A stretch of 64,000 nucleotides of DNA, from assembly GCA_017881315.1 (NCBI GenBank), contig JADGRB010000001.1, positions 12,564 to 76,563 on the forward strand, in the 5' to 3' direction. Shown here piece by piece: positions 887 to 60,811 of this stretch. The DNA is from Pseudomonadota bacterium (lineage in GTDB: Bacteria; Myxococcota_A; Polyangia; Fen-1088). A model generated the notes under the pieces. It was given only the letters and a program-made list of their open reading frames with translations. It did not search any database and had not been told where the DNA came from. Both the position numbers and the translations under genes were made by a program. Positions within the stretch are counted from its first letter, which is position 1. Each line of letters begins with the position of its first letter.

Positions 887-11371
<10,485 letters not shown>

Positions 11372-24822: not shown

Positions 24823-25899
24823 GTGGCGCCCGAGACGATGTCGGCCTCGGTGGTCATCGCGGCGAGCCGCGCCGAATCGCCTGGCGCGGCCATGACGATC
24901 GCCGGCCTGACGGTGATCGATCGCGCCCTCAAACAGCTCGCGCAGTCGCCCGAGACGCGGGTGGTGGTGGTCGGCGACGGATCGATCGCGCTGCCGTCGT
25001 CGCTCGCCCCCAACGTCGAGGTTCGGACCGTCGCCGACGGTGCGGCGGCCGCCGCGATCGCCGAGACCGCCCGCGAGCTGGGCGCGCCCGTGATCGGGGC
25101 CGACCTGGTGCGCGTCGATCGGGCGCGGTTCGACGGAGGTTTCCGGGTCGTCGACGAGCCGAGCCGTCGGGTGGCGGAGGACGCGGTGTTCGCGGCGCTC
25201 TATCGGCCCGATCTCGGCTTCGTGGCGCGCCGCCTGAACAAGCCCCTCTCCGTGCGCCTCACTCGATATTTCCTGGTGCGCACGGCCATCACGCCCAACC
25301 AGATCACGCTCTTCGCGGCGCTCCTGGGCATCGCCGGCTGTGGGCTGGTGGCGTCCGGGCAGTTCGCCGCGATCTGCCTGGGATTCGCGCTCGAACAGGT
25401 CCAGTCGATCCTCGACGGATGCGACGGGGAGCTGGCGCGGGTCCGATTTCAGCAGTCAAAGCTGGGGGCCTGGCTGGACACCTTCGTCGACGACGTGCTC
25501 AACGTGCTCATCACGGTCGCCACGGGCGTCGGGCTCCACCGCGCCGGCGCCGGCAGCTGGGCGGTCGCGGTCGGCGTCGCGGGGGCGGCGATGCTCATCC
25601 TCTCGAATCTCATCATCATGCGCGACATGCGCCGCCAGAGGGCCAGCGGAGACCTGATGGACATGGTCTGGTGGTTCTCCGGGGGGCGCCGCCTGGCAGA
25701 GCTGTCGGGCGGCGGAAAACCCAGCATCGGGAGCATTCTCTTCCAGCTCGGTCGCCGCGATTCGGCCCTCTTTCTGTGGTTGATCTTTGCCCTTTCGGGC
25801 GCCCTGGTGCTGGTGCTGGTGATGGCCGCGATCATCGCCCTGTGCTGGTTCGTCGCCAGCGTCATCCAGCTTTTCACGGCCCCCGACGCGGCCACCTGA
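24823..25899 (+). CDS. Second fusion protein: degenerate NTP-transferase-like domain plus CDP-alcohol phosphotransferase (paralog of 23062..24225)
   Basis: N-terminus [28 protein letters not shown] (GxGxR replaced by SRAES). CDP-OH-PT signature [30 protein letters not shown]. Six or more TM helices. GTG lies 1 nt after the kinase TAA. An alternative ATG is at 24838. Confidence 0.75.
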
Positions 25900-25967
25900 C
25901 GGCTTCGCCTTGCGCGGCGCCGGGCGGCGCAATAATGTCTACCGCCCCGGCTTTGCGCCGGATCCCT

Positions 25968-28900
25968 ATGTTCGAACTCGCCAAGAAAATTTTCGGTACC
26001 AAAAACGCCCGCGTCATCAAGGGGATGCGTCCGCTGGTCGAGCGGATCAACCAGCTCGAGCCCGACCTCAAGACCAAATCCGACGCGGAGCTGCTCGCCA
26101 AGACCGGTGAATTCCGGCGCCGCCTCGAGCAGGGCGAGCCGCTCGACGACCTGCTGCCGGAGTCCTTCGCGGTCTGTCGCGAGGCGGGGCGGCGCGTGCT
26201 CGGCATGCGCCACTTCGATGTCCAGCTGATCGGCGGCATGGTCCTGCACCAGGGGAGCATCGCCGAGATGAAGACCGGCGAGGGGAAGACGCTGGTCGCG
26301 ACCTTGCCGGTCTACCTGAACGCGCTCACGGGCAAGGGCGTCCACCTGATCACCGTCAACGACTACCTGGCCCGGCGCGACTCCGAGTGGATGGGGCGGA
26401 TCTACAAGTTCCTCGGGATGTCGGTGGGGATCGTGGTTCACGGTCTGTCAGACGCCGAGCGGCAGGTCAGCTACCGCTCGGACGTGGCCTACGGGACCAA
26501 CTCCGAGTTCGGGTTCGACTACCTGCGCGACAACACCAAGGACTCGATCGAGCGTTACGTCCAGCGCGAGCACAACTACGCCATCGTCGACGAGGTGGAC
26601 TCGATCCTGATCGACGAGGCGCGCACGCCCCTCATCATCTCGGGCTCCGCCGAGCAGTCGGTCGATCTCTACCAGAAGGTCGACGCCATCATCCCGGGGC
26701 TGCGCAAGGACATCGACTACACCGTCGACGAGAAGGCGCACTCCGCCATCCTGACCGACAACGGCATCGAGCGGGTCGAGCAGCGCCTGGGCGTCGGTAA
26801 CCTCTACAACCCGGCCAACATCGAGTGGCTGCACCACGTGACCCAGGCGCTCAAGGCGCACACGCTCTACAAGCGCGACGTCAACTACCTGATCGACGAC
26901 GGCGCCATCATCATCGTGGACGAGTTCACCGGCCGCAAGATGCCGGGCCGGCGCTGGTCGGACGGCCTGCACCAGGCCATCGAGGCCAAGGAGGGGGTCG
27001 AGGTTCAAGAAGAGAACCAGACCATGGCGACCATCAGCTACCAGAACTACTTCCGCCTCTACAAGAAGCTGGCCGGCATGACCGGCACCGCCGACACCGA
27101 GGCCGAGGAGTTCCACAAGATCTACAAGCTCGGCGTCACCGTGGTGCCGACCAACAAGCAGATCCTGCGCGCCGACGCCGACGACGTCGTCTACAAGAAC
27201 GAACGCGGCAAGTTCCGCGCGGTGTGCGACGAGATCGAGGACTGCTACAAGCGCGGCCAGCCGGTCCTGGTCGGCACGGTGAGCGTGGAGAAATCCGAGG
27301 TGGTCGCGTCGCTGCTGCGCAAAAAGAACATTCCGCACAGCGTGCTCAACGCCAAGCAACACGAGAAGGAAGCCTTCGTCGTCTCGCAGGCGGGGCGCAA
27401 GTCGGCGGTCACCATCTCGACCAACATGGCGGGCCGCGGGACCGACATCATCCTGGGCGGCAACGCCGAGTTCATGGCGCGCGCCGAGGTCGATCCCGAG
27501 AACGCCGGCAAGCCGGGCCACGAGCTCGACCCGGCCAAGCAGGCGGCCTACGACGAGGCCTTCGGCCGGTTCAAGCCCCAGTGTGACGCCGAGAAGCAGG
27601 AGGTGCTGGCCGCGGGCGGCTTGCACATCCTCGGCACCGAGCGGCACGAATCGCGGCGTATCGACAACCAGCTCCGTGGCCGGGCGGGTCGCCAGGGGGA
27701 TCCGGGAAGCTCGCGCTTCTTCCTCTCCTTGGAAGACGATCTGATGCGCATCTTCGGCGCCGAGCGCATCACGGGCTTGATGGAGCGCCTCGGGATGGAA
27801 GAGGACGTGCCGATCGAGCACGGCCTCATCAACCGCGCCATCGAGAACGCGCAGAAGAAGGTCGAAGGTCACAACTTCGACATCCGCAAGAACCTGCTCG
27901 AATACGACGACGTCATGAACCAGCAGCGCAAGACCATCTACGCGCTGCGCCGGCAGGTGCTGGAGGGGCGCTACGCGCCCGAGCCGACCGACGAAGAGAA
28001 GAAGCGCGGCACCGCGATCGAGGTGGAGCTGCCCACCGAGTCGGGCAAGCACACCGTGGCCAGCATCGCGGCGGTGATCCGCCCGGTGCTGGCGCGCATG
28101 TGCGACGCGCTCGGCGAGCATCGCGTCCCGGACGCCAGCGCGCCCGGGGGCTTCGCCGTCACGGCCGTGCCGGTCGACCCGGCGCACCTTCGGTCGCTCA
28201 TCTATCGGGATTTTGGCGCCTACCTCGATCCGACCGGCATCGTCGAGGATCGGACGGCCACCCTCGATCGCCTGGCCGACGAGGTCGCGTCGTCGATGAT
28301 CCAGCAGCGCGAGCGGCTGCTCGATCTCAGCGAAGAGATGATTCATCTGATCGTCGGTGAGCACTGCCCGCCCAACTCCCATGCCGAAGATTGGGATCTG
28401 GGCGCGCTCAAATCCGCGGTCAAGGAGCGCTTCGGTTTCGAGCCGACCATCGACGTCAGCCAGGCGCTCGAACGCGACACGATGGCCGAGTCGCTCTGGA
28501 ACGAGGCGGAGAAGGTGATCGAGGCCCGCGAGGCGGAGTTCCCGCTGCACGTCCTGCTCCACTACGCGCGCCTGTTCTACCTGGAGGAGATCGATCTGCG
28601 CTGGATCGAGCACCTCAAGGCGATGGAGGCGCTGCGCGAGGGCATCCACCTGCGCGGCTACGGCCAGATGGACCCCAAGCAGGAGTACAAGAAGGCGGGC
28701 TACGTCATCTTCGGCGAGATGATGGAGAACATCGGTCGCAACGTCTGCGAGAAGCTGTTTCACATGCGCCTGCAGCGCAGTCCCGAGGCGCCCGGCGCCC
28801 CGGCCGCGGCGCCCCCGCCGGGGCAGCAGCGCCGTCCGCGGAAGGTCATCGAGTCCGGCGGCGGATCGGCGGCCTCCAACGGCGACGGCGCCGCGGCGGC

Positions 28901-29030
28901 CAAGACCGGCGACGACGGAACGGCACGGCCGGTGCGTCGCAACGAACCCAAGGTGGGCCGCAACGATCCCTGCCCATGCGGGAGCGGGAAGAAATACAAG
29001 AAATGTCACGGCCTCAACGCGGCGGCCTGA
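25968..29030 (+). CDS. secA: Preprotein translocase ATPase SecA
   Basis: [10 protein letters not shown] aligns with the E. coli MLIKLLTKVFG. Motifs [33 protein letters not shown] and LHQAIEAKE are present, as is the C-terminal zinc finger [14 protein letters not shown]. The track ORF 25419.. includes an upstream out-of-frame extension. Confidence 0.9.
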
Positions 29031-55549: not shown

Positions 55550-56761
55550 ATGCCCAAGCAGCTGGTCGCCCCCCGCATCCGTAGCTTCATCTGTCTGAAC
55601 GCTCACCCGGGGGGGTGCGCCGCCAACGTCGACGCGGAGATCGCGGTCGCGACGACCGGCGCTCCGGGCACCGGCCTGCGCGATGCCCTGGTGGTGGGCG
55701 CCAGCACCGGCTACGGGCTGTCCAGCCTGGTGAGCGCGATCTTCGGCTACGGCGCGCGCGGCACGGCGGTCTGCCTGGAACGGCCACCGCAGGGGGAAAA
55801 GACCGCTTCGGCGGGCTGGTACAACCTGGCCGCCGTCGAGCGCCGCGCGCGGGAGCACGGACGCGAGCTCTCGGTCGTCAATGGGGATGCCTTCAGCGAC
55901 GAGATCAAGCGCGACACCCTGGCCCGGCTCGCGCGTGCCGGCACCAAGCTGGATTGCGTCGTCTACAGCCTCGCCAGCCCCAAGCGGACCGACCCCCAAA
56001 CTGGCGTCAGCTACAGCTCGGCGCTCAAGCCGATCGGTGCGCCGTTTCGCAGCCGGAGCATCAACCTCGGCAACGATCAGGTGACCCCGGTCGAGATCGG
56101 CCCGGCCAGCGACGCCGAGATCGAGGCGACGCGCAAGGTGATGGGAGGCGAGGACTTCGCGGCCTGGATCCGCGCGCTCGAGGAGGCCGAGCTGCTGGCC
56201 GAAGGTTGTCGCGTCGTCGCGTACAGCTACATCGGACCAGCGCTGACCTTCCCGATCTACCGCTCGGGGACCATCGGCAAGGCCAAGGAGGATCTCGAAG
56301 CCACGGCCCGGACGCTGTCGACGGCGCTGGCCTCGCGCCTCCGAGGCGCGGCCTACGTGAGCGTGAACAAGGCGCTCGTCACCCAGGCGTCGGCGGCGAT
56401 CCCGGTGGTTCCGCTCTATATCAGCCTGCTCTACAAGGTGATGAAGGAGGCCGGAACACACGAGGGGACTGCCCAGCAGATCGCGCGTCTCTTTCGCGAT
56501 CACCTCGCACCCGGGCGCAGCCCGGCCACCGACGAAGCGGGCCGCATCCGCATCGACGACCTCGAGATGGAGGCCGGCGTCCAGGCGCGCGTGGCCGCGC
56601 TCTGGGAGACGGTCACGACCGAGAACCTGTTCGAGGTGACCGACTACGCGGGCTTCAAGACCGATTTTCGCCGTCTCTTCGGCTTCGAGATCCCCGGCGT
56701 CGACTACGCCACCCCGGTCGAGACCGACCTGCCCATCGCATCGGTTGCCGCGGCGCTATAA
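55550..56761 (+). CDS. fabV: Trans-2-enoyl-CoA/ACP reductase FabV
   Basis: The N-terminus PRIRSFICLNAHPGGCAANV matches the FabV RGFICVTAHPAGCEANV signature. Length is ~400 aa, with a Tyr-x8-Lys active site region (YSYIGPALTFPIYRSGTIGKAK). Confidence 0.85.
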   Translation: MPKQLVAPRIRSFICLNAHPGGCAANVDAEIAVATTGAPGTGLRDALVVGASTGYGLSSLVSAIFGYGARGTAVCLERPPQGEKTASAGWYNLAAVERRAREHGRELSVVNGDAFSDEIKRDTLARLARAGTKLDCVVYSLASPKRTDPQTGVSYSSALKPIGAPFRSRSINLGNDQVTPVEIGPASDAEIEATRKVMGGEDFAAWIRALEEAELLAEGCRVVAYSYIGPALTFPIYRSGTIGKAKEDLEATARTLSTALASRLRGAAYVSVNKALVTQASAAIPVVPLYISLLYKVMKEAGTHEGTAQQIARLFRDHLAPGRSPATDEAGRIRIDDLEMEAGVQARVAALWETVTTENLFEVTDYAGFKTDFRRLFGFEIPGVDYATPVETDLPIASVAAAL

Positions 56762-56771
56762 TCCCTCGGTC

Positions 56772-56978
56772 ATGCAGCGTTCGGTTTCGCTCAAGGTGAT
56801 CGTTCACTGCCCCCACTTCGGGCGTCCGGTGACCGCCACGCGCAACCTGGCCATCGACAGGCTGGTGGCCTGCACGGACAGCGAGCTCTGCCGAGATCCC
56901 AACCCCGTCGCCGCCCCGACCGAGCACGCGCGCCCATTTCCGCGCGGCTGCCCGGTGTTCCCCTCGCTCGCCAAGTAG
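56772..56978 (+). CDS. Small Cys-containing protein (68 aa), hypothetical
   Basis: High GC3 (about 80%). Four Cys (HCPHF, VAC, ELC, GCP) suggest a possible small metal-binding protein. No recognisable family. Confidence 0.35.
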   Translation: MQRSVSLKVIVHCPHFGRPVTATRNLAIDRLVACTDSELCRDPNPVAAPTEHARPFPRGCPVFPSLAK

Positions 56979-57018: not shown

Positions 57019-57340
57019 CTACTTGGGCATCGGCTCGTCGTCGGTCGACGGCGCGGAGGACTTCTTCTTGCCGGCCTTCTTGGGCTTTTCGGCGGCCTTG
57101 TCGGCTTTGTCGGCCTTGTCGGCCGCCTTGCTGGCTTTGTCGGCCGATTTGCTGGCTTTGTCGGCTGATTGGTCGGCCTTGCTGGCCGCCTTGTCGGCCT
57201 TCTCTGCTGACTTGTCGGCCTTGTCGGCGGCTTTGTCGGCGGCCTTGTCGGCCTTGTCGGCTTTGTCGGCCTTGGCTTTTCCGGCCTTGTCGCCCTTGGC
57301 CTTCCCGCCCTTGCCCTTGCCCTTGCCCGCGCGATCGGGC
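57019..57340. repeat. Degenerate 12-18 bp tandem DNA repeats encoding the AKADKADK tail
   Basis: Plus-strand units GCCTTGTCGGCC / GCTTTGTCGGCC / GCCTTGCTGGCC are repeated about 20 times. Confidence 0.5.
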
Positions 57341-58782
57341 GACGGGTTGATGTCCTCGGGCTCGGGTTGGGTCTGGATCTTTTCGCTGCCGGAGAGCAAC
57401 CGGAACTCGATGCGCCGGTTCTTTTCGGTGCCCTCTTTGGTGGCGTTGTCGGCGATCGGTTTATCGGGGCCGTAGCCGATGGTGCCGATGCGGCTCTCGT
57501 CGATGCCGGCCGAGACCAGGAACGCCTTCACCGCTTCCGCCCGCTTGCGCGAAAGCTTCATGTTGAACTCGCGCTTACCCTCTGTGGATGTATGGCCGGA
57601 GATCTCCACCCGCAGGGCCGGGTAGTCCTTGAAGACGATGATCGCCTGCTTGAGCAGCGGGAAGGACGAGGCCTTGATGTCGGCCGAGTTGCGCCGGAAG
57701 TTGATCCCCTTGACGACGCCGGTGAAGGCCTTGACCGCCACCGGGACCTCGTCGGGGCAGCCGTCCTCGTCCTGGTACCCGTTCTTGGTCTCGGGCTCGT
57801 TCGGGCACTTGTCCTTCTCGTCGAGAATGCCGTCCTTGTCGTTGTCGGGATCCGGGCAGCCGTCGGCGTCCTCGAAGCCGTCCTTGTCCTCGGGGTCGTC
57901 GGGGCACTTGTCCGCCGAGTCGACGATGCCGTCGTGGTCGCGATCCTCCTCGGGGCAGCCGTCGCGCTCCTTCGGGCCGGCCTTGTCGGGGCACTTGTCC
58001 AGGCGGTCGACGATGCCGTCGCCGTCGGTGTCCTTGTCGGGGCAGCCCTTGTTCTCCTTCGGACCGGCCTCGTTCGGACAGTTGTCCTTGTCGTCGGTGA
58101 TGCCGTCGCCGTCGGTGTCCTTGACGAGCTGCGCGACCGGCTCGGGCGGCGGGGGCGCGTGGCCGCCCAGCGTGACGCCGAAGCCGAGCGTGACCTCCCA
58201 GTCGGGAGAGAAACCGTTGTTCTTGACGTTGGGGGCCGCCAGGGCCCGGCCGTCGAGCCGCAGGTGCAAAAGCTCGGTGAGGGCGAACTTGGCGCCGAGG
58301 CCGACGTAGAAGTTCGCGTCGGTATCGTTCTTCTTGATGGCCGTATAGCTTCCGTCGCCGGAGGACGCGAGAACCGAGGTCGCGCCGACGCCGGCCAGCA
58401 CGAACGGCGTCACCGGGCCGGGGAGGATGATGTTGTAGCGAAGGTGGATGCGCAACGCGCTGATGAAGAGGCTCTTGCCCTGCTGGTTGTCCTTGGTGGG
58501 CATGCCCAGCGCTTCGCCTTCGATCGCGAACATTGGGTGGAGCACCAAGGCGGTGCGGATCCCAAAGGTCACCGAGCTCTTGGGGCTGGGCAGCGTGGGG
58601 TCATCGGCGACGCCCAGCTCGAGATCCTTGGCGAACCAATGGTAGCCACCGGTCACGCCGAGCTCGACTTTGATCCCCTCGCTGTTGTCTTGCGCCGCGG
58701 CGTTGCGAGCCCCGAACAAGATGCAAACGCCCAAGGCGGCCGCCAGGGCGCCGCGCGATCTCCACTCGAGGATCTGTGCCAT
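57019..58782 (-). CDS. OmpA-family outer-membrane protein with thrombospondin type-3 (Ca-binding) repeats and a Lys/Ala-rich C-terminal tail
   Basis: Signal peptide, a beta-rich N-domain, six or more DxDxDGxxDxxDxCP repeats (DTDGDGITDDKDNCP, DTDGDGIVDRLDKCP, DRDHDGIVDSADKCP ...), and an OmpA_C domain (NMKLSRKRAEAVKAFL...NRRIEF). The tail is GKAKGDKAGKAKADKADKAADKAADKADK...KKAGKKK. Confidence 0.85.
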   Translation of the reverse strand: MAQILEWRSRGALAAALGVCILFGARNAAAQDNSEGIKVELGVTGGYHWFAKDLELGVADDPTLPSPKSSVTFGIRTALVLHPMFAIEGEALGMPTKDNQQGKSLFISALRIHLRYNIILPGPVTPFVLAGVGATSVLASSGDGSYTAIKKNDTDANFYVGLGAKFALTELLHLRLDGRALAAPNVKNNGFSPDWEVTLGFGVTLGGHAPPPPEPVAQLVKDTDGDGITDDKDNCPNEAGPKENKGCPDKDTDGDGIVDRLDKCPDKAGPKERDGCPEEDRDHDGIVDSADKCPDDPEDKDGFEDADGCPDPDNDKDGILDEKDKCPNEPETKNGYQDEDGCPDEVPVAVKAFTGVVKGINFRRNSADIKASSFPLLKQAIIVFKDYPALRVEISGHTSTEGKREFNMKLSRKRAEAVKAFLVSAGIDESRIGTIGYGPDKPIADNATKEGTEKNRRIEFRLLSGSEKIQTQPEPEDINPSPDRAGKGKGKGGKAKGDKAGKAKADKADKADKAADKAADKADKSAEKADKAASKADQSADKASKSADKASKAADKADKADKAAEKPKKAGKKKSSAPSTDDEPMPK

Positions 58783-58926
58783 GGCCTGCCACTATAACGC
58801 GTTTGGCCCTCGCCGAAAATTCCGCCGCGTCGCGCAGCGAATATTTGTCCGGGACGGCGGTGGCCGCGCTATAAGCTCAGGCGCTCGACGGCCGGTCCGT
58901 CTTCACAGACCACACGAGGAGGAACC

Positions 58927-59232
58927 ATGATCCGTTTTGCCGCCCCGCTCTCCGCCGCTGCGCTGCTTTTCCTGCTCACCGGGACCGCCGGCGCCGCCGA
59001 CGAGGGGAAGTGTACCATCGCAATCAAGGGCGACTCCCCGACGGCCCGGGCCTGCACAAAAGGCGGCCGGGCCGAAGCGAAGAAGATGATGAAGGAGATG
59101 GTCAAGCAGGCCAAGGGCAGCGGGCAGAAGTTCACCTGCGACGGTTGCCACAAGGATCTCGACAACTACGAGCTGACCAAGACGGCGCCCGAAGATTTCA
59201 AGAAGCTGGAAGCCGCCCAAAAAACCAAGTGA
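58927..59232 (+). CDS. Small secreted protein with a single CXXCH motif (candidate mini c-type cytochrome or disulfide protein)
   Basis: Signal peptide MIRFAAPLSAAALLFLLTGTAGAA. Mature ~77 aa with 4 Cys including FTCDGCHKD. RBS GAGGAGG precedes the ATG. Confidence 0.55.
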   Translation: MIRFAAPLSAAALLFLLTGTAGAADEGKCTIAIKGDSPTARACTKGGRAEAKKMMKEMVKQAKGSGQKFTCDGCHKDLDNYELTKTAPEDFKKLEAAQKTK

Positions 59233-59269: not shown

Positions 59270-60811
59270 ATGAAAACTGTCACCGAGTTTCCAGGAATTG
59301 TGCTCCGAGAGGCGGCGGGAATTCGGCGCCTGCATCGCCCCGCGCCGGTGGCGCCACCCGCGGCGCCCGTCCCGCCCGAGTCCGAAGCGGGATCGTCGAC
59401 CGCGGTCGAGCCGACGAGCGAGGCACCATCGGCTGAGCTCGACCAGGTTTCCGCGGTCGAGGCACCCGCGGTCGAGCCGACGAGCGAGGCACCCGCGGAC
59501 GAGGCACCCGCGGACGAGGCACCGGCCGTCGAGGCGGCACCGGCCGTCGAGGCGGAGCCGGCCGTCGAGGCGGCGGCGAGCGCCGAGTCTGTCGGCACCG
59601 ACGTGCCCGCGCCCGAGGGACCACCTCCCGAAGGTCCGACGCCCGACGGACCCGCGCCCGAGGAGCCTGCGCCCGAGGCACCACAGCCGGAGGTGGCGGA
59701 AGCCGCCGCGCCGGTGGTCGATGAAGGCGCCATTGCCGCCGCGGCCGAGCTGGAAGAGAAGCTCGATATCAAAGGCGATCGCCTGGCGCGACTCATGGAG
59801 GCGCTCGACGTCATCCGCGATCGCGCCGACAACGTGCGGCTCGTGCGCGTGATGAGCGGCGAGGATCCGCCACCCGGTGCCAAGAAGCAGGGCGACTTCT
59901 ACTACCTCGTCGATCTTCTGCCGCGCCCGGAGCAGCGGCGCGATCGGGGCGATCGCGCTGGCGGGCAAGGTCGTCGCGAGCGGGGTGGCGGCGGTCCCGG
60001 CGGCGGCCGTGGCGGCGGCGGTGGTCGTCCAGGCGGCGGCCCCGGCGGAGCCGGCGGCGGTCGTCCCGGCGGCGGCCCGGGCGGAGCCGGCGGTCGTGCC
60101 GGCGGCGGCTTCGGTTTCGGCGGTCGTGATCGCGATTCGGGTCCAGGCACACCCGCCGCCGGTCCCGGTTGGATGATCACCCGGGATGCCGGCGGTCCTC
60201 CATTGCCGGACGGTCGTCCCGGTCGCCGTCCGGTCGCCAAGCGCGCAGACGCCGAAGCGGGCGATCGGCGCCCCGGTCGGGGAGCTGGCGGTGGTGCAGG
60301 TGGTCGTCCCGGCGGCGGTCCGGGTGGTCGTCCCGGCGGCGGTCCGGGGGGCGGCGCTGGAGGTCGGCCGGCGGGTGGTCCCGGTGGCGGTGTGGGCGCC
60401 CGGCCCGGTGGCGGACCCGGCGGTCGCCCGGGCGGCGGGCCAGGCGGTGGCTCGGGTCGCGGACCTGGCGGTGGCCCAGGCGGTCGTCCCAGCGGCGGGC
60501 CCGGTGGTGATTCTCGCGGGCGCGGTCCGCGCGGACCCGGCGGTGGACCGGGCGCATCGCGCGGTCCGGCCTTCGCGCGCGGTGGGCCGGGTGGAAGGCC
60601 GCCGGGGTCGGGGCCGAAGCGCGATTCGATGGGCTGGCCGATCGCCGACACCGTCGCGCCGGGGTCGGTCGCTCCCTTGCCGAGATCGACGTCGGCCTCC
60701 AGGGCGGAGCCGAAATCCGGGCCGAAATCCGAGTCAAAATCCGAGTCGAAGCTCGAGCCGGTCTCGGCTCCGCCAGAGCCGTCCACCCCCGACGCCTCCA
60801 AGTCGTCGTAG
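59270..60811 (+). CDS. Intrinsically disordered protein: acidic Pro/Glu/Ala-rich N-region, short folded segment, long GGRPGGGPGG (RGG-like) repeat region, Ser/Lys/Glu tail
   Basis: The ORF abuts the upstream gene (38 nt) and ends 3 nt before the downstream gene. The central segment EEKLDIKGDRLARLMEALDVIRDRADNVRLVRVMSGE looks folded. An antisense Pro-rich ORF (59902..61161) exists but overruns the downstream gene. Confidence 0.55.
   Translation: MKTVTEFPGIVLREAAGIRRLHRPAPVAPPAAPVPPESEAGSSTAVEPTSEAPSAELDQVSAVEAPAVEPTSEAPADEAPADEAPAVEAAPAVEAEPAVEAAASAESVGTDVPAPEGPPPEGPTPDGPAPEEPAPEAPQPEVAEAAAPVVDEGAIAAAAELEEKLDIKGDRLARLMEALDVIRDRADNVRLVRVMSGEDPPPGAKKQGDFYYLVDLLPRPEQRRDRGDRAGGQGRRERGGGGPGGGRGGGGGRPGGGPGGAGGGRPGGGPGGAGGRAGGGFGFGGRDRDSGPGTPAAGPGWMITRDAGGPPLPDGRPGRRPVAKRADAEAGDRRPGRGAGGGAGGRPGGGPGGRPGGGPGGGAGGRPAGGPGGGVGARPGGGPGGRPGGGPGGGSGRGPGGGPGGRPSGGPGGDSRGRGPRGPGGGPGASRGPAFARGGPGGRPPGSGPKRDSMGWPIADTVAPGSVAPLPRSTSASRAEPKSGPKSESKSESKLEPVSAPPEPSTPDASKSS
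59940..60600. repeat. Imperfect ~30-bp tandem repeat (GGTCGTCCCGGCGGCGGCCCGGGCGGAGCC-like)
   Basis: About 15-20 degenerate copies encode GGRPGGGPGGA units. GC is above 80%. Confidence 0.5.

Follow-up and report, generated by a model that had tools for sequence, protein, structure and literature searches.

A repeat-encoded, lysine-rich C-terminal tail on an OmpA-type protein of uncultured Polyangia, a candidate periplasmic tether

We describe the C-terminal tail of an OmpA-type outer-membrane protein encoded in a 64,000-nucleotide stretch of a Polyangia genome, that of an uncultured soil myxobacterium (assembly GCA_017881315.1, contig JADGRB010000001.1, positions 12,564 to 76,563; this whole stretch is hereafter called the window). 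The open reading frame (ORF), at 57019..58782 on the minus strand, is a genuine gene of 587 codons. Its product contains, in order, a signal peptide, an 8-stranded outer-membrane barrel, TSP3 repeats, an OmpA-like domain and a 122-residue C-terminal tail. A sequence-only reading of this DNA had placed an OmpA-TSP3 protein with a Lys/Ala-rich, tandem-repeat-encoded tail at exactly these coordinates, and the ORF, its Pfam domains and the repeat arrays were all recovered. That reading lacked two informative features of the tail: a pair of conserved flanking motifs and a strict preference for Lys over Arg. The tail is a polyampholyte spacer with a Lys cluster and an acidic-proline motif on either side. 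With slightly less than even confidence, we favor the view that it is a periplasmic, disordered, net-cationic tether or spacer whose Lys clusters contact the wall or the envelope, and which presents a conserved terminal peptide. The protein itself is a lineage-specific variant of a well-known kind of protein.

Charge plan and coding status of the tail

The 122 residues that follow the OmpA-like domain are of low complexity and are laid out as an acidic-proline motif (PEPEDINPSPDR), a Lys cluster, a variable spacer, a second Lys cluster and a second acidic-proline motif, DDEPMPK. All elements are on the minus strand. The acidic, proline-containing N-terminal flank (residues 466-485, SEKIQTQPEPEDINPSPDRA, 57328..57387, net charge -3) is conserved in the alignment. 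It is followed by basic cluster 1, rich in Lys and Gly (residues 486-504, GKGKGKGGKAKGDKAGKAK, 57271..57327, net +8 in the charge scan), by the repeat-encoded spacer (residues 505-565, 57088..57270), and by basic cluster 2 (residues 566-574, KPKKAGKKK, 57061..57087, net +6 in the same scan). The protein closes with the C-terminal acidic/proline motif (residues 575-587, SSAPSTDDEPMPK, 57022..57060, net -2), conserved in the alignment and at the ends of the orthologs, before the stop codon at 57019-57021. The spacer, delimited by tandem-repeat analysis, indels and prediction confidence, is made of ADK and AADK units forming ADKAADK heptads. Its net charge is about 0, the positive charge of the tail being concentrated in the two conserved Lys clusters.

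Residues 491-587 contain 29 Lys, 28 Ala, 16 Asp, 3 Glu and no Arg, which gives a net charge of +10 over 97 residues; the tail has 19 acidic residues and is 16% Asp. Only two Lys-rich segments (at least 10 Lys per 50 residues) occur in the window, and the tail is one of them. The tail had been described as about 100 residues of repeats ending in KKAGKKK. It is indeed of low complexity, but the repeat block proper covers only about 61 residues, and the protein does not stop at KKAGKKK: it runs on with its C-terminal motif, and no other part of the tail is as conserved.

The GC content at third codon positions (GC3) is 0.87 in the tail versus 0.92 in the body; therefore, the frame is coding. Together with the presence of the tail in more than 100 orthologs, the in-frame indels and the conserved end described below, this rules out a mis-extended ORF, the error that the sequence-only reading had proposed to check for. 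The antisense ORFs 57023..57475(+) and 57367..58797(+) appear to be shadow frames of this 67% GC gene, since domain matches, orthologs and a GC3 of 0.91 back the minus-strand frame. An exact-sequence look-up of the protein returned no record.

Conservation among orthologs

A protein search gave more than 7,900 matches. The top 120 are 461-589 residues long and mostly annotated only as OmpA family, with Polyangia metagenome-assembled genomes (MAGs) as their sole named source. A genome scan yielded 80 loci, most of them from Polyangia or other Myxococcota and all from uncultured MAGs except one from Paracoccus (L078). We analyzed 108 distinct ortholog tails from uncultured Polyangia, selected for carrying both flanking motifs. 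Their length ranges from 49 to 140 residues (median 89, standard deviation 19, as compared to 12 for the body of the protein). Their net charge is +3 to +13 in 108/108, none being at or below 0.

Across these tails, the spacer is composed of 31% Lys, 25% Ala, 11% Gly, 10% Asp, 9% Pro and 0.2% Arg, and hydrophobic residues are essentially nil. In the seven syntenic neighbor proteins, Lys accounts for 2.7% and Arg for 8.1%. Hence, the Lys-only spacer opposes the mutational bias seen in its Arg-biased neighbors, which indicates selection on composition. The spacer sequence is, on the other hand, unconstrained, with different repeat units in different lineages, while charge, composition, flanking motifs and Lys clusters are constrained.

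The PEPEDINPSPDR motif follows the OmpA domain and occurs in all 108 tails, themselves chosen by motif. Within this N-terminal flank, E467 never varies, and P475 and P480 reach at least 90% conservation. The orthologous counterpart of basic cluster 1 reads RKHPKGxKxxK, and the 16 residues preceding the C-terminal motif contain 3-8 Lys plus Arg (median 6). At the C-terminal end, P584 is invariant and P586 is at least 90% conserved. The terminal string DEPMPK is found in 66 of the 108 distinct tails. Lys is the last residue of 83; among the other 25, endings such as ...PMP and ...KGEL occur.

A scan of the JGI metagenome collection (241 million records) for DDEPMPK followed by a stop gave 25 matches. 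Of these, 21 are clear orthologs, two are contig-truncated fragments consistent with orthologs, and two lie inside an unrelated protein as non-terminal DDEPMPKW strings. Neither the window nor the 80 loci (about 0.9 Mb of relatives) contain any further ORF with DDEPMPK plus stop. As judged from these sequence searches, the terminal motif is exclusive to the OmpA-tail family within the metagenome scan and the related loci. A general C-terminal sorting signal was therefore rejected, the motif being on no other protein family in either collection.

Repeat units and length variation

Tandem Repeats Finder (TRF) detects arrays at 57093-57292, with a period of 21 bp in 9.5 copies (72% match, score 143) and a period of 9 bp in 17.9 copies. 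The AT skew over the array drops to -0.83. The tail is thus built from tandem repeats, as had been proposed, but the unit is not 12-18 bp: it is a 9-bp unit (ADK) mixed with a 12-bp unit (AADK), together forming a 21-bp ADKAADK super-unit.

The tail had also been pointed out as a likely site of length variation. In the nearest relative, L081, it differs by five in-frame indels of 3, 6, 3, 9 and 3 bp, which confirm gain and loss of repeat units at the strain level; across the ortholog tails, the same variability is seen in the 49-140 residue range. Over the coding sequence (CDS), most 90-nt blocks of L081 are 96-100% identical to the window and two barrel blocks are 83% identical. All 19 non-tail amino-acid differences between the two proteins fall in the signal peptide and barrel (residues 7-180; 58243-58764(-)), nucleotide identity goes down to 83% over CDS nucleotides 361-540, and the TSP3 and OmpA modules are identical. 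This pattern suggests a variable or recombined barrel segment.

Spacer units differ by lineage: TRF reports 21-bp ADKAADK, 18-bp KADKPA, 15-bp KAKTT, 9-bp KTG and 18-24-bp GEGKAK units. The periods of all major arrays in ortholog tails, and of nearly all rows, are multiples of 3. With these periods and in-frame indels, the repeats yield length variation only, and a phase-variable (contingency) locus was discarded. The repeats were also judged not to form a structured DNA or RNA element (folding z = -1.36), and a promoter and terminator scan found nothing relevant to the repeats. In three tails (L004, P0059 and P0114), the sequence switches mid-repeat to an alternative, Arg/Pro-rich frame, probably because of misassembly at the repeat or because the gene is a pseudogene.

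Domain architecture, location and peptidoglycan pocket

The protein starts with a Sec/SPI-type signal peptide read from the sequence (residues 1-30, ...ARNAAA|QD, 58693..58782(-)). In the AlphaFold2 (AF2) model, computed with a 63-sequence alignment, this region is a helix (residues 7-22) followed by a segment of low predicted local distance difference test score (pLDDT). The 8-stranded outer-membrane beta-barrel (residues ~31-208, 58159..58692(-)) is supported by Pfam OMP_b-brl (PF13505; residues 20-192, 43 bits versus a cut-off of 28.7, E 7e-11) and by eight AF2 strands over residues 35-208 with pLDDT above 90. A Pro-rich hinge and TSP3 Ca-binding repeats come next (residues 209-350, 57733..58158(-)), supported by Pfam TSP_3 (PF02412; 51.2 bits versus a cut-off of 25, E 1e-13), alignment columns, TRF and the solved structure 5wtl. 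This module has a net charge of -30. Its Asp, Cys and Pro columns are invariant in the ortholog alignment, including four CP...GCP Cys pairs and the DxDxDG motifs. The DNA encoding it (57747-58123) forms a tandem array of its own, for which TRF gives units of 87 and 99 bp in 1.9-2.6 copies (73-80% match). The OmpA-like peptidoglycan-binding domain (residues 351-465, 57388..57732(-)) matches Pfam OmpA (PF00691) over residues 362-456 and model positions 2-98 of 98 (69.8 bits versus a cut-off of 27.2, E 2.6e-19) and aligns with solved domains; a PDB search gave 60 OmpA-like matches for the protein.

In the AF2 model, the barrel is confident and the TSP3 and OmpA modules are moderately so. Residues 474-587 have almost all pLDDT below 50 and no secondary structure. 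The tail of a short-tail ortholog (P0034) is likewise disordered in a second run. Hence, the topology check that had been suggested returned an eight-strand barrel and a disordered tail in two orthologs. A helical or coiled-coil tail, as the ADKAADK heptad might evoke, was rejected, with no helix in either run and Pro-rich units in orthologs. From the signal peptide, the even number of barrel strands and the invariant TSP3 Cys pairs, we infer that the tail lies in the periplasm, where it would emerge at the peptidoglycan layer. The tail alone has no Pfam match, only sub-threshold low-complexity matches in NCBIfam, and best PDB matches that are both compositional (a phage tape measure, E 0.07; an Lpp chain, E 0.8).

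In AbOmpA, Asp271 and Arg286 bind diaminopimelate (DAP) (PMC5974059). In the window protein, the Asp of the GHTD motif, equivalent to AbOmpA Asp271, is replaced by Ser399 (GHTS; codon 57586-57588). Ser399 is invariant in the syntenic Polyangia clade, and all GHTD-type relatives lie outside it. The pocket Arg414 (LSRKRA) is kept and invariant. Judged by these residues, the peptidoglycan-binding pocket appears degenerate, with the canonical Asp lost.

The closest solved structures, 5wtl and 5wtp, belong to an OmpA family protein with the same TSP3 plus OmpA-like module, Cys pairs and Asp-rich Ca sites (best PDB match of the window protein: 5wtl, E 7e-57). However, the 5wtl protein ends in ...RRVEINLI without a tail and has GHTD, whereas the window protein has GHTS and a 122-residue disordered tail. 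Within the same phylum, Myxococcus xanthus TraB, the outer-membrane exchange partner of TraA, has a similar barrel/TSP3/OmpA-like architecture. TraB (NF033763) is also the best NCBIfam match, at 185.3 bits versus a cut-off of 700. The window protein is therefore a relative, not TraB; moreover, no traA lies next to it, the adjacent genes being those for a CxxCH protein, a Gly/Arg-rich protein and a response regulator, plus fabV and usp. As the match ends at position 514 of the 522 of the model, TraB has no comparable tail.

Proposed role of the tail

The protein would act as an OmpA/OprF-type tether from the outer membrane to peptidoglycan, with the barrel in the membrane, the Ca-binding TSP3 repeats as a stalk and the OmpA-like domain at the wall. 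Its C-terminus would be extended into the periplasm by the intrinsically disordered, net-cationic tail. Beside a binding pocket without its canonical Asp, the Lys clusters may form weak, multivalent salt bridges with peptidoglycan, which is rich in carboxylates, or with some other anionic surface of the envelope. From sequence, binding of the tail to peptidoglycan or another envelope polyanion is plausible. The (ADKA)n block would be an elastic spacer only, evolving rapidly by slippage and selected for length, solubility and charge rather than for sequence. It would thereby determine how far the conserved terminal peptide can extend toward the periplasmic or inner-membrane partner on which it probably docks. 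Both peptidoglycan binding by the tail and docking of the peptide are what we infer from its composition and conserved motifs.

By analogy, domain II of TolA and TonB may be the closest functional counterpart. This region is about 100 residues long, is helical, Pro-rich or disordered depending on the clade, and tolerates deletions until reach is lost (PMC12204202). Like the OmpA tail, it is a degenerate, charged, Ala/Lys- or Pro-rich periplasmic spacer in which composition flips between clades and length counts rather than sequence (PMC12204202); the alternation of ADKA-type and KPAD-type units among OmpA tails parallels it. The spacers are not homologous, however, and the OmpA tail is tethered the other way round: TolA and TonB are fixed in the inner membrane, driven by a motor and closed by a folded end domain, whereas the OmpA tail hangs from a protein bound to the outer membrane and peptidoglycan and ends in a short peptide.

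Several points weigh against this tether-and-spacer view. In the AF2 models of the window protein and of P0034, neither motif docks onto its own protein. One subclade extends 20-54 residues past the EPMP motif, so a free C-terminus is not required. The central block of the window tail is charge-neutral and Asp-rich, which disfavors polyanion binding. Since Arg would bind carboxylates better, the strict Lys preference goes beyond simple electrostatics. Lys-poor syntenic orthologs and tail-less relatives and paralogs indicate that the tail is an accessory rather than a core function. Finally, the whole tail-bearing clade consists of uncultured MAGs.

Alternative explanations

An unlikely alternative is that the tail is neutral low-complexity filler: slippage junk tolerated between the OmpA domain and the conserved terminal peptide, without function of its own. 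The extreme variability in length and sequence, the independent repeat units of each lineage and the strain-level indels are all expected of such filler. In addition, syntenic orthologs get by with a short Ala/Pro linker, and other OmpA-domain proteins have tails of very different charge, such as Paracoccus L078 (net -22). Selection is nonetheless visible in the uniformly positive net charge (108/108), in 31% Lys against 0.2% Arg where neighbor proteins contain three times as much Arg as Lys, and in the near absence of hydrophobic residues. The Lys clusters are positionally conserved, and the frame is kept to the conserved end save in the three likely assembly errors or pseudogenes.

A long shot is that the Lys-only tail makes the protein a covalent beta-barrel 'Braun-like' tether, with spacer length tuning the distance from outer membrane to wall, or else gives it an outer-membrane-anchored, inverted TolA-like reach. 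In the latter variant, drawn by analogy, the spacer and the DDEPMPK peptide would reach an inner-membrane partner. Lpp, Braun's lipoprotein, ends in ...YRK. Covalent anchoring taken by itself, with C-terminal or internal tail lysines cross-linked to meso-DAP by L,D-transpeptidases as a substitute for Lpp, is a little less probable still; the terminal DEPMPK is unlike the Lpp C-terminus, 25 of the 108 tails have no terminal Lys, and an Lpp/OprI alanine-zipper model scores 7.4 bits against a cut-off of 43 on the tail. Neither a YkuD active-site motif nor a local L,D-transpeptidase gene turned up in the window and 1.07 Mb of related loci, which counts weakly, as these are genome fragments only. 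Nevertheless, precedents exist. M. xanthus has neither Lpp nor LpoA/B (PMC12132463), and covalently bound beta-barrel outer-membrane proteins are known in bacteria without lpp (PMC12274547). The charged C-terminal extension of OutB, with a Lys box at its end, is necessary and sufficient for attachment, and Coxiella LimB is attached via an internal Lys (PMC12274547). The tail resembles Lpp, OutB and LimB as a charged C-terminal extension on an envelope protein, mostly ending in Lys, in a lineage probably without Lpp; it differs in having no Lpp-like box and in that a terminal Lys is not universal (83/108). The strict Lys-over-Arg preference would suit amine chemistry, and the non-covalent pocket is degenerate (Asp to Ser).

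Less probable again is an intramolecular electrostatic role, in which the cationic tail would fold onto the acidic TSP3 module of the same protein, for instance as a Ca2+-dependent switch. The two carry opposite charges within one chain and one compartment, and TSP3 repeats are reported to bind Ca2+ (Dai et al. 2017, Cell Calcium 66:78, cited in PMC12045341). However, the charges of tail and TSP3 do not correlate over 84 orthologs (Spearman rho -0.08, p 0.45, not corrected for phylogeny), AF2 shows no contact between them, and tail-less relatives have TSP3 modules that are equally or more acidic.

The least probable explanation is the histone-H1-like polycation of the sequence-only reading, binding DNA, extracellular DNA or polyphosphate or exposed at the surface: the high Lys and Ala content and the two Lys clusters recall PAKKA-type basic tails reported to bind DNA in cytoplasmic proteins such as mycobacterial Ku (PMC3553676), but the signal peptide, 8-stranded barrel and disulfide-locked TSP3 put the C-terminus in the periplasm, the tail has its 19 acidic residues and a neutral D/K repeat block, no histone-like or DNA-binding family was matched in Pfam, NCBIfam or PDB, and behind the periplasmic OmpA-like domain AF2 shows no extra beta-strands that could carry the tail back across the outer membrane. 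The likeness to histone-H1-like, AlgP and Ku-type tails is that of low-complexity K/A(/P) repeats arising from tandem DNA repeats. Those tails are cytoplasmic DNA binders with few acidic residues, whereas the OmpA tail is exported and Asp-rich. Some orthologs and the Kofleriaceae paralog L045 (KPAAKAA, net +36) come nearer to that type.

Evolution and genomic neighborhood

The locus has the same layout throughout the clade, with a response regulator gene, usp, fabV, a small ORF, ompA, a divergent gene for a CxxCH protein and one for a Gly/Arg-rich protein; up to 34 loci share the flanking genes. In syntenic orthologs that are 50-55% identical, the tail is a short Ala/Pro stretch with a net charge of about 0, yet its last residues are again GEPMP, from which the terminal motif appears older than the Lys-rich spacer. 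Farther out, relatives and paralogs (Nannocystaceae, Sorangium) terminate at RLL, without a tail.

Lys-rich tails also arose independently in Kofleriaceae MAG paralogs, namely L045, with KGKGRKAG as well as KPAAKAA repeats, and L050 (net +11). The Paracoccus alkenifer tail (L078) is an independent, acidic one on an OmpA-domain protein. One MAG, SMAG_U4931, contains two fully syntenic copies of the locus (L007 and L031), one with a Lys-rich and one with an Ala/Pro tail, which suggests a mixed bin rather than paralogs.

Divergent from ompA, 58927-59232(+) encodes a 101-residue secreted protein with a CxxCH motif (CDGCH), 15 Lys and 3 Arg and no Pfam family; this gene is syntenic with ompA in 34 related loci. 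Beyond it, a 513-residue ORF at 59270-60811(+) is almost wholly Gly/Pro/Arg/Ala low complexity, with GC up to 0.84 and no Pfam match. Only its residues 169-221 are conserved across 28 loci, with 81-96% identity in close and 56-63% in distant syntenic relatives. Between fabV and ompA, a 77-residue Cys-containing ORF (56745-56978(+)), without family match, is conserved in 11 loci and has a gene call in L081. Elsewhere in the window are a 3,494-residue protein with TPR repeats throughout (887-11371(+)) and a 1,203-residue SecA with an N-terminal extension of about 190 residues (25419-29030(+)).

Discussion

Neither the protein family and its domains nor low-complexity tails as such are new, and the finding would be ordinary if the tail proved to be filler. 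What stands out is the combination of a Lys-only, selected composition, two conserved motifs and a degenerate binding pocket. Literature searches covering OmpA, TSP3 and myxobacteria and Lys-rich C-terminal extensions of OmpA-like domains turned up no account of such a tail. The tail also offers a clear natural case of a disordered region in which charge, Lys identity and end motifs are kept while slippage replaces the sequence repeatedly.

In diderm bacteria without Braun's lipoprotein, the means by which the outer membrane is coupled to the wall is an open question, and in M. xanthus this coupling is only loose (PMC12132463). A conserved, length-variable periplasmic extension of selected composition, with its family-specific terminal peptide, on a syntenic OmpA-type tether is a candidate tuning element for the coupling of outer membrane and wall in this Polyangia clade.

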